DNA of 59,243 nucleotides from Minisyncoccota bacterium. GTDB lineage: Bacteria > Patescibacteriota > Minisyncoccia > UBA6257 > 1-14-0-10-40-38. This document shows, in pieces, positions 29,043 through 29,387 of this stretch. The stretch is taken from the NCBI GenBank assembly GCA_009694925.1, contig SIBX01000001.1, positions 1-59,243 of the forward strand. Direction: 5' to 3'. Position numbers and translations under genes: made by a program. The notes under the pieces are model-generated. The model made no database searches. It saw only the letters and a list, made by a program, of their open reading frames with translations, and had not been told where the DNA came from. Each line of letters begins with the position of its first letter. Positions within the stretch are counted from its first letter, which is position 1.

Positions 29043-29071
29043 TTTAAACAGTTTGCCTTTTAAGATACTAT
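29043..29071 (+). promoter_or_regulatory. predicted promoter of the 310-nt RNA
   Basis: TTTAAA, 17 nt spacer, TACTAT. Confidence 0.4.
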
Positions 29072-29077
29072 ATGGTA

Positions 29078-29387
29078 TTCTTCTAATTGTCGGGGGGTGC
29101 AGATTGGTCCTGAAAACAGCAAGACTTCATAGGAGCGATTCACGACGGTCCTCCTTGTAGCTTGGTGAAAAGGTGCGGCGCGCAATTAACGAGAAGACTC
29201 ACCGAGTTGATTCTTGCTACTGGCAGGCACTCTGTCTGACCAGCCAAGGAGATACTCTCATTCTTCTTCGGGATAGATCTGCACCTCCCCGACGCTATTT
29301 CTCTAATAGGGCGCATCGGCAGTAGCTCCCCAGTCTGCTTGCCCTGCGCCGGCCTGGATATCCACACGGAGTCCAGGCCACTTTTTT
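29078..29387 (+). ncRNA. ORF-poor GC-rich structured RNA, about 310 nt
   Basis: A 16-bp closing helix pairs gtcggggggtgcagat (29089-29104) with atctgcacc(t)ccccgac (29277-29293), extended by tcctgaa/ttcggga. Terminator ggcctgga-(13 nt)-tccaggcc followed by ac, T6 (29351-29387). Confidence 0.5.

Follow-up and report, generated by a model that had tools for sequence, protein, structure and literature searches.

A rod-closed structured RNA predicted from a GC-rich island in a freshwater Saccharibacteria genome

Introduction

Does a GC-rich island of some 300 nt in the AT-rich genome of a freshwater representative of the Saccharibacteria constitute a gene for a structured non-coding RNA (ncRNA), and if it does, what kind of RNA would it specify? 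The genomes of Saccharibacteria and of other members of the Candidate Phyla Radiation (CPR) comprise about 0.5-1 Mb. No description of regulatory or non-coding RNAs in either group was found in the literature.

The island, termed I-b, is located in a stretch of 59,243 nucleotides (contig SIBX01000001.1 of assembly GCA_009694925.1), the whole of which is referred to here as the window. The genome from which the window stems (G000) is available as a 544,322-base assembly of 34 contigs that is 88.9% complete and has a genome-wide GC content of 35%. Between 29050 and 29399, GC values of 0.43-0.55 are reached as compared to 0.24-0.39 in the flanks, and the core of I-b (29089-29387, plus strand) forms an island of 50-55% GC. 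An initial annotation of the window had proposed an RNA of about 310 nt at this site, in which a 16-bp helix closes the 5' part and a 3' domain of some 90 nt runs into a terminator, and had likened the architecture to that of 6S-type or ornate RNAs. As set out below, the fold and an orthologue from a second genome agree with the first of these proposals and do not support the second.

Results

Predicted fold and boundaries of the I-b RNA

When the plus strand was folded from 29080 to 29395, a minimum free energy of -138 kcal/mol was obtained, compared with -96.2 +/- 5.3 kcal/mol for 100 dinucleotide shuffles (z -7.86), none of which was as good (0/100), and the closed core folded alone still gave a z of -6.06. 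The minus strand folds less well (-117.3 kcal/mol, z -3.66). In the minimum-free-energy fold, the rod that closes the 5' domain spans 29089-29293 and consists of 24 bp arranged as 7+10+7, with a bulged U at 29286 and one 1x1 G/A mismatch as interruptions (Table 1). Three of its pairs are G-U pairs, which would read as A-C mismatches on the opposite strand. The plus strand is therefore favored, because it has the better z of the fold, because of these three G-U pairs and because T-run terminators lie on the plus strand in both species studied here.

All pairings listed in the initial annotation are present in the sequence and were recovered independently by an inverted-repeat search. GTCGGGG (29089-29095) pairs with CCCCGAC (29287-29293), and a 23-nt arm (29092-29114) that takes in gcagat/atctgc and cctgaa/ttcggg pairs with 29267-29289. 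Farther inside, CCTGAAAACAGCAAGA (29109-29124) is complementary to TCTTGCTACTGGCAGG (29212-29227); this helix includes agcaaga/tcttgct, a pairing that exists as had been noted but competes with others in the minimum-free-energy fold. For the predicted inner hairpin, the pairing probability of G29222 and of C29241 is 1.0 each. A pseudoknot between CUCCUUG and CAAGGAG is a further possibility; the comparative data do not settle the choice among the pairings predicted for the interior.

Table 1. Features predicted for island I-b, in window coordinates.
Feature	Position	Strand	Description
Putative promoter	29053-29081	+	-35 TTGCCT 29053-29058; 17-nt spacer with extended -10 TG at 29073-29074; -10 TATTCT 29076-29081
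Rod, 5' strand	29089-29113	+	GUCGGGG / GGUGCAGAUU / GUCCUGA
Interior	29114-29267	+	predicted to be multi-branched, GC-rich; three hairpins in the minimum-free-energy fold
Inner hairpin	29220-29243	+	CUGGCAGGCA-CUC-UGUCUG(A)CCAG
Rod, 3' strand	29268-29293	+	UCGGGAU / AGAUCUGCACC / U bulge / CCCCGAC
Linker	29294-29309	+	AUUUC at 29297-29301, kept in G001; 5-bp mini-hairpin possible in G000
Hairpin H2	29310-29350	+	imperfect; apical loop CCCC 29328-29331
Intrinsic terminator	29351-29387	+	8-bp GC stem, GGCCTGGA 29351-29358 pairing with TCCAGGCC 29372-29379; T-run 29382-29387

The putative promoter ends 7 nt upstream of the first paired base, and transcription probably starts at G29089. By manual count the promoter agrees with the consensus at 8 of 12 positions, and a simple sigma-70 scan with a threshold of 9/12 did not call the site. 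The terminator, too, was missed by a simple scan, probably because its loop of 13 is longer than the 8 that the scan allows. The I-b RNA would thus be a plus-strand transcript of about 300 nt that begins near G29089 and ends at the terminator.

A syntenic orthologue in a second genome of the genus

In another genome of the same genus (G001), an orthologue of I-b was found by synteny, on locus L016 between the same two genes as in G000. The encoded 2-hydroxyacid dehydrogenase and BipA proteins are 91% and 93% identical between the two genomes, and the window is otherwise collinear with contig C1 of G001 at a DNA identity of 73-86%. The gap between the two genes amounts to 364 bp in G001 versus 2,307 bp in G000; relative to G001, G000 has gained a further island, I-a, upstream of I-b and a helicase gene downstream of it. 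As these gains lie on both sides of I-b, the RNA is the constant part of the locus. I-b occurs as a single copy in each of the two genomes.

The spacer in G001 contains a 250-nt GC-rich RNA with a predicted folding energy of -110.6 kcal/mol (z -7.78). The region comprising the putative promoter and start (29052-29093) is identical to positions 2513-2554 of L016 at 35 of 42 nucleotides (83%, counted manually on the alignment), and both loci exhibit the pattern TTGCCT, 17-nt spacer, TGnTATYCT, 7 nt, G. Inside the transcript, sequence is conserved at the ends of the rod and in the 3' module only: the two orthologues have the RNA termini GUCGG...CCGAC, a CUGA at the top of the rod and the motif CCGAC-N-C-N-AUUUC in common. 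At the position of H2, G001 has a hairpin with the loop CCCCCC versus CCCC in G000, and its RNA ends in a GC hairpin followed by seven T. An RNAalifold consensus for the 3' domain (H2 plus terminator), computed from just two sequences, contains 16 pairs, of which eight differ on both sides.

The rod comprises 29 bp in G001 versus 24 bp in G000. An alignment of the full RNAs by MAFFT misplaces the 5' rod strand and was left out of model building; rod pairs were instead counted by aligning the 5' strands by sequence similarity and then reading the partners of each. None of the 22 aligned pairs of the rod is broken: 16 are the same, three differ on one side (wobble) and three on both sides (compensatory), although covariation from two sequences carries no statistical power. 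Uninterrupted rod segments of 10-14 bp are present in both species, and in both predicted folds the last inner hairpin and the 3' rod strand are directly adjacent (0 nt between them). The interiors, on the other hand, cannot be aligned (76 nt at L016 2582-2657 in G001 versus 154 nt in G000), and the closed domains differ in length accordingly (139 nt versus 205 nt). With interiors that differ so much in length and in sequence, there is no support for a catalytic or ligand-binding core that depends on a specific sequence, and part of the I-b fold may be unconstrained.

Sequence variation in a third strain

Two sequencing runs labeled as freshwater metagenomes (X1 and X2) cover nearly the whole window; they may represent the source sample itself and do not count as independent support. 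A run from a different study (X3) yielded a 185-nt contig over 29091-29276 with eight differences from G000, which may be errors at the contig depth of 4.6. When these differences are placed on the fold, four fall on bases that do not pair, one inserts a base next to a bulge that is already there, and one removes the U from a U-G pair that closes a loop. The remaining two, G29222U and C29241A, together turn a G-C pair of the inner hairpin into U-A. All Watson-Crick pairs stay intact, even though the fold pairs 69% of the bases that the contig covers.

Comparison with known RNA families

A search of the whole window against Rfam 15 at the gathering threshold returned a tRNA at 54620-54690 and nothing else. 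Lowering the threshold to E<=10 for the region 28750-29480 brought up seven weak miRNA, lncRNA or sRNA matches (16-21 bits versus gathering scores of 47-208), none of them to 6S, tmRNA, RNase P, SRP, OLE, ROOL, GOLLD, raiA, HEARO, riboswitch or T-box models. For the G001 orthologue, 12 weak matches were obtained, the best with 24.6 bits versus a gathering score of 92. ARAGORN detected neither a tRNA nor a tmRNA at the locus. A kinship with 6S-type or ornate RNAs is thus not borne out at the gathering threshold, and the predicted folds, which are multi-branched, lack a two-sided central bubble.

Several housekeeping RNAs were considered for I-b and rejected. RNase P RNA is encoded elsewhere in the window (8112-8480); at 83.1 bits it stays below the gathering score of 100 for RF00010 and would be missed by standard Rfam annotation. 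The tmRNA gene resides on contig C3 (17042-17391, 122.8 bits). With regard to SRP RNA, RF00169 and RF01854 are unmatched in G000, a regular expression for the domain IV motif has no occurrence in the genome, and the apical loop is a CUC triloop in I-b versus GCAA in its orthologue. I-b is not regarded as an SRP RNA because neither SRP RNA nor Ffh nor FtsY was found in the family.

The SRP searches produced an observation in its own right. The model for the small SRP RNA (RF00169) is unmatched in all 12 family genomes and in all 121 class genomes searched, and the M domain of Ffh (PF02978) in all 12 family genomes. For PF00448, the GTPase domain of Ffh and FtsY, weak partial matches of 17-22 bits were found in 6 of the 12 family genomes; they cover positions 3-33, 3-54, 3-89 or 48-160 of the 196 positions of the model, and one reaches the cut-off only when summed with neighbors in its frame. 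In the 14 control genomes, the SRP-family searches were positive in 12-14 cases. If real, this result would mean that Saccharibacteria have lost SRP or that it has diverged extremely in them, and no mention of this was found in the literature. SRP genes do appear in one article (PMC10768705). They bear APY09_ locus tags and the comparison quoted there concerns the host strain XH001n, which is why we take them to be genes of the host.

Search for homologues

BLAST of 29060-29395 against 61 related genomes, and a search of the same number of genomes with a covariance model built from the single sequence (R1), each recovered one genome only, which in the case of BLAST was G000 itself. With filters switched off, R1 scores the G001 orthologue at 11-14 bits, and does so on both strands. 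A two-sequence model of the 3' module (R2) matched its two training sequences among the 12 family genomes; two further matches (E 1.2 and 3.2) were dismissed as noise, the better of them looking like coding sequence. Applied to 70 loci, 64 from metagenomes and six syntenic, R2 found L016, a training sequence, and R1 found none.

A search of 401 class genomes for the motif GTCGG-N100-220-CCGACNCNATTTC produced 18 matches in 16 other genomes versus five for a reversed control; these 18 were rejected, as they have at most seven contiguous rod pairs versus nine in G000 and 14 in G001. An exact inverted-repeat scan of the genome was swamped by AT-rich noise. Synteny outside the genus, followed in four other genera, did not reveal a similar RNA 3' of the dehydrogenase gene (G003) or of the BipA gene (G002, G003, G005 and G009). 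I-b had no match among 50,697 phage records and in plasmid collections, and the motif composed of promoter and 5' end is absent from IMG/VR. Since R1 gives the true G001 orthologue a mere 11-14 bits, absence is not concluded: as judged by these sequence searches, I-b is "not found" rather than "absent" outside the genus.

Searching the genome for the promoter motif returned one loosely similar promoter, at position 2937 of contig C14. This region (C14:2937-3812) consists of the promoter (TTGCTTTTTTAGATAGGGTATG...) and a subsequent island of about 800 nt with up to 66% GC. When 42 GC-rich islands were compared with one another by BLAST, none proved to be related to I-b; its sole match was discarded as a 78-nt overlap between the padded windows of I-a and I-b.

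Other features of the window

Apart from I-b, the window contains several elements that merit description. Island I-a (28811-29030), which is absent from the same locus in G001, is a separate candidate small RNA with a promoter-like site TTTACA-16-TATACT (28885-28912, 10/12) and a 112-nt stretch (28919-29030) that is predicted to fold into a rod hairpin and a terminator (-48.3 kcal/mol, z -7.3). A long hairpin upstream (28815-28890) has a 79% match in G001 (C1:265367-265441) and may be a dispersed element. The gene for a PIF1-like helicase (29432-31075; PF05970, E 8e-36) is an insertion specific to G000 between the terminators of I-b and BipA; such helicases occur in 3 of 12 family genomes, with two copies in G004. 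At 27553-27819, an ORF for an 88-aa GIY-YIG protein (Pfam E 1e-14) is flanked on both sides by perfect inverted repeats of 20 bp (CCCGGTGCTACAACTTTAAT at 27532-27551, complement at 27807-27826). The collinear sequence of G001 lacks this entire unit of about 295 bp, which has the appearance of a compact mobile cassette.

Three further segments, 11808-12666, 21387-22011 and 32963-35642, have no BLAST match in the collinear G001, and each coincides with a GC-rich island. The island at 33004-33309 has an apparent small GC-rich ORF behind AGGAGG as well as its own promoter-like site and terminator. Upstream of the gene for tRNA-Gln, an island of about 330 nt without a long ORF (53880-54213) includes a closing helix 11 bp or more in length (GCTCGGAGACTAG...CTAGTCTCCGAGC, 53953-54053).

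Discussion

The picture that emerges from our analysis is that of I-b as a genuine ncRNA gene, predicted to be transcribed independently, whose product would act in trans as a riboregulator or scaffold. We assign this reading a probability of about one half, the trans-acting role being the much less certain part of it. As far as can be judged from the nucleotide sequence, I-b has what is generally expected of an independent gene for a structured small RNA, i.e., a putative promoter and terminator of its own and a structure with compensatory changes, but no conserved ORF. We classify it as a new RNA family outside the existing classes, found in a single genus of freshwater Saccharibacteria. The novelty lies in the family, which is narrowly distributed; its kind, a bacterial structured small RNA, is an ordinary one.

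The I-b RNA would act in trans, either as a stable riboregulator or as a protein-binding scaffold. Its fully paired 5' end and long rod might shield it from 5'-end-dependent decay; alternatively, the perfect rod segments of 10-14 bp could present the RNA to a double-strand-binding protein or to RNase III. The working end of the molecule would be the conserved 3' module, whose C-rich loop might pair with G-rich, Shine-Dalgarno-like stretches of target mRNAs, an interaction that would need neither Hfq nor CsrA. Neither of these proteins was found in G000, the assembly of which is 89% complete. When the 3' module was compared by RNAduplex with 499 orthologous start regions, the duplexes obtained were long and loop-ridden, and no interpretable shared target appeared. 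Such a trans-acting mechanism via the C-rich loop is proposed by analogy alone and is much less certain than the gene itself.

A different emphasis would be to place the function in the long duplex and to regard I-b as a structural or processing RNA, that is, as an RNase III substrate from which shorter RNAs are released or as a subunit or scaffold of a lineage-specific ribonucleoprotein. The uninterrupted rod segments kept in both species, with their compensatory changes, fit this idea, as do arms that vary in length and sequence around a junction of fixed position, which is typical of scaffold RNAs. A linked gene for a partner protein is not apparent, however, since the neighbors differ between G000 and G001 except for the dehydrogenase and BipA, and we consider this explanation a possible but rather unlikely one.

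The likeness to 6S RNA, a protein-sequestering RNA in which a rod with an unpaired interior mimics an open promoter and binds RNA polymerase holoenzyme, deserves attention for two reasons: I-b is predicted to be a stable, GC-rich, rod-closed and independently transcribed RNA, and no recognized 6S RNA was found in G000, so that the role is perhaps vacant. Sequence is known to be poorly conserved among 6S RNAs, and as the Rfam 6S search was positive for only 5 of 14 control genomes, the failure of RF00013 to match I-b even locally at E<=10 counts as a weak negative. The architecture itself is nevertheless at odds with a 6S-type RNA. In the folds predicted for both species, the junction is attached to the 5' side alone and leaves 0 nt unpaired on the 3' side; the closed domains of the orthologues differ in length, and a 3' extension like the conserved one of I-b (about 95 nt) is foreign to 6S. 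This makes membership in the 6S group improbable.

We assign a similarly low likelihood to the idea that I-b is a relic of selfish DNA rather than a functional RNA, the inverted repeats at the ends of a MITE-like insert (GTCGG...CCGAC) giving the impression of a closing helix. The locus is a hot spot of insertion, as G000 has gained I-a, the PIF1 helicase gene and the GIY-YIG unit compared to G001; moreover, the termini are palindromic, R1 matches both strands of the G001 orthologue, and two different inserts at one site would mimic compensatory change. These arguments are countered by the single copy in both genomes, by the lack of matches in the phage and plasmid collections and of the promoter motif in IMG/VR, and by a conserved promoter, 3' module and terminator that all lie outside the "repeats". 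In addition, a compensatory change affects the inner hairpin, and the G-U pairs favor one strand.

If the ends stay fixed while the arms are replaced wholesale between sister species, I-b could also be viewed as a fast-evolving, lineage-specific RNA engaged in conflict, for example as a decoy or specificity determinant in phage defense or in the interaction between epibiont and host. The repeated uptake of mobile DNA by the locus (PIF1 helicase, GIY-YIG cassette, island I-a) underlies this view, to which we nonetheless attach a slim chance.

Two further explanations are effectively excluded by G001. I-b ends in a terminator that precedes a same-strand gene by 45 nt, which is the classical layout of an attenuator, and could be taken for a cis-acting, riboswitch-like leader of the helicase gene, but this is most improbable because the helicase gene is an insertion confined to G000, and G001 has the RNA without it, its convergent BipA gene following directly after the terminator; within the family, helicases of this type were found in just 3 of 12 genomes, and the riboswitch and T-box models are without a match. 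It is just as implausible that I-b encodes a small protein: there are ORFs on the minus strand (29140-29367, 75 aa, GTG start) and on the plus strand (29173-29325, 50 aa), and the X3 insertion after 29238 and deletion at 29259 would restore the frame after about seven codons, but an ATG start is lacking, a ribosome-binding site was not seen, the 75-aa ORF belongs to no Pfam family, and chance long frames are expected in GC-rich DNA of an AT-rich genome, the islands lying mostly under ORFs of at least 90 aa. The ORFs at the same place in G001 are unrelated (BLASTP of the two minus-strand ORFs, no alignment at E<=100), so that the orthologue, far from preserving the ORF at the expense of the helices, keeps the helix and not the ORF. 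The initial annotation was therefore right to treat the minus-strand ORF as incidental.

Returning to I-b as an independent ncRNA gene, we note that the finding is a modest one that concerns one genus, with thin comparative support from one full orthologue and one partial strain contig. Still, a 300-nt ncRNA gene that is kept in a 544-kb genome and whose helices are under selection suggests that minimal epibionts continue to invest in RNA functions, and that such functions are invisible to homology searches. At a divergence of the flanks of 91-93% identity for proteins and 73-86% for DNA, the orthologue escapes both BLAST and single-sequence covariance models completely, and only synteny succeeded.

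How does I-b compare with known systems? It resembles MITEs in its size of 140-205 bp, in inverted termini of 14-17 bp and in a locus with other insertions, and differs from them by its single copy, a strand-asymmetric fold, a conserved promoter just outside and a 3' module beyond. With packaging RNA of the phi29 type, I-b shares a helix of 5' and 3' ends that closes a multi-way junction with variable hairpins, structure being kept with nearly free sequence; unlike this RNA, it is chromosomal and sits in a context that is conserved in two species and devoid of phage genes. The 3' module calls to mind the C-rich-loop RNAs of Firmicutes, RsaE/RoxS and RNAIII, in which a C-run forms the apical loop of a hairpin ahead of an intrinsic terminator. 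These RNAs pair with G-rich ribosome-binding sites without Hfq. I-b has neither sequence nor model similarity to them, its C-run reads CCCC (G000) or CCCCCC (G001) as compared to their UCCC motif, and its rod-closed 5' domain is much larger. As in 6S RNA (RF00013), finally, distant 5' and 3' segments of I-b form a long closing stem in a molecule of at most a few hundred nucleotides with little conservation of sequence. In contrast to 6S RNA, the interior of I-b is a one-sided multi-branch junction, and the 3' extension carries hairpins of its own.
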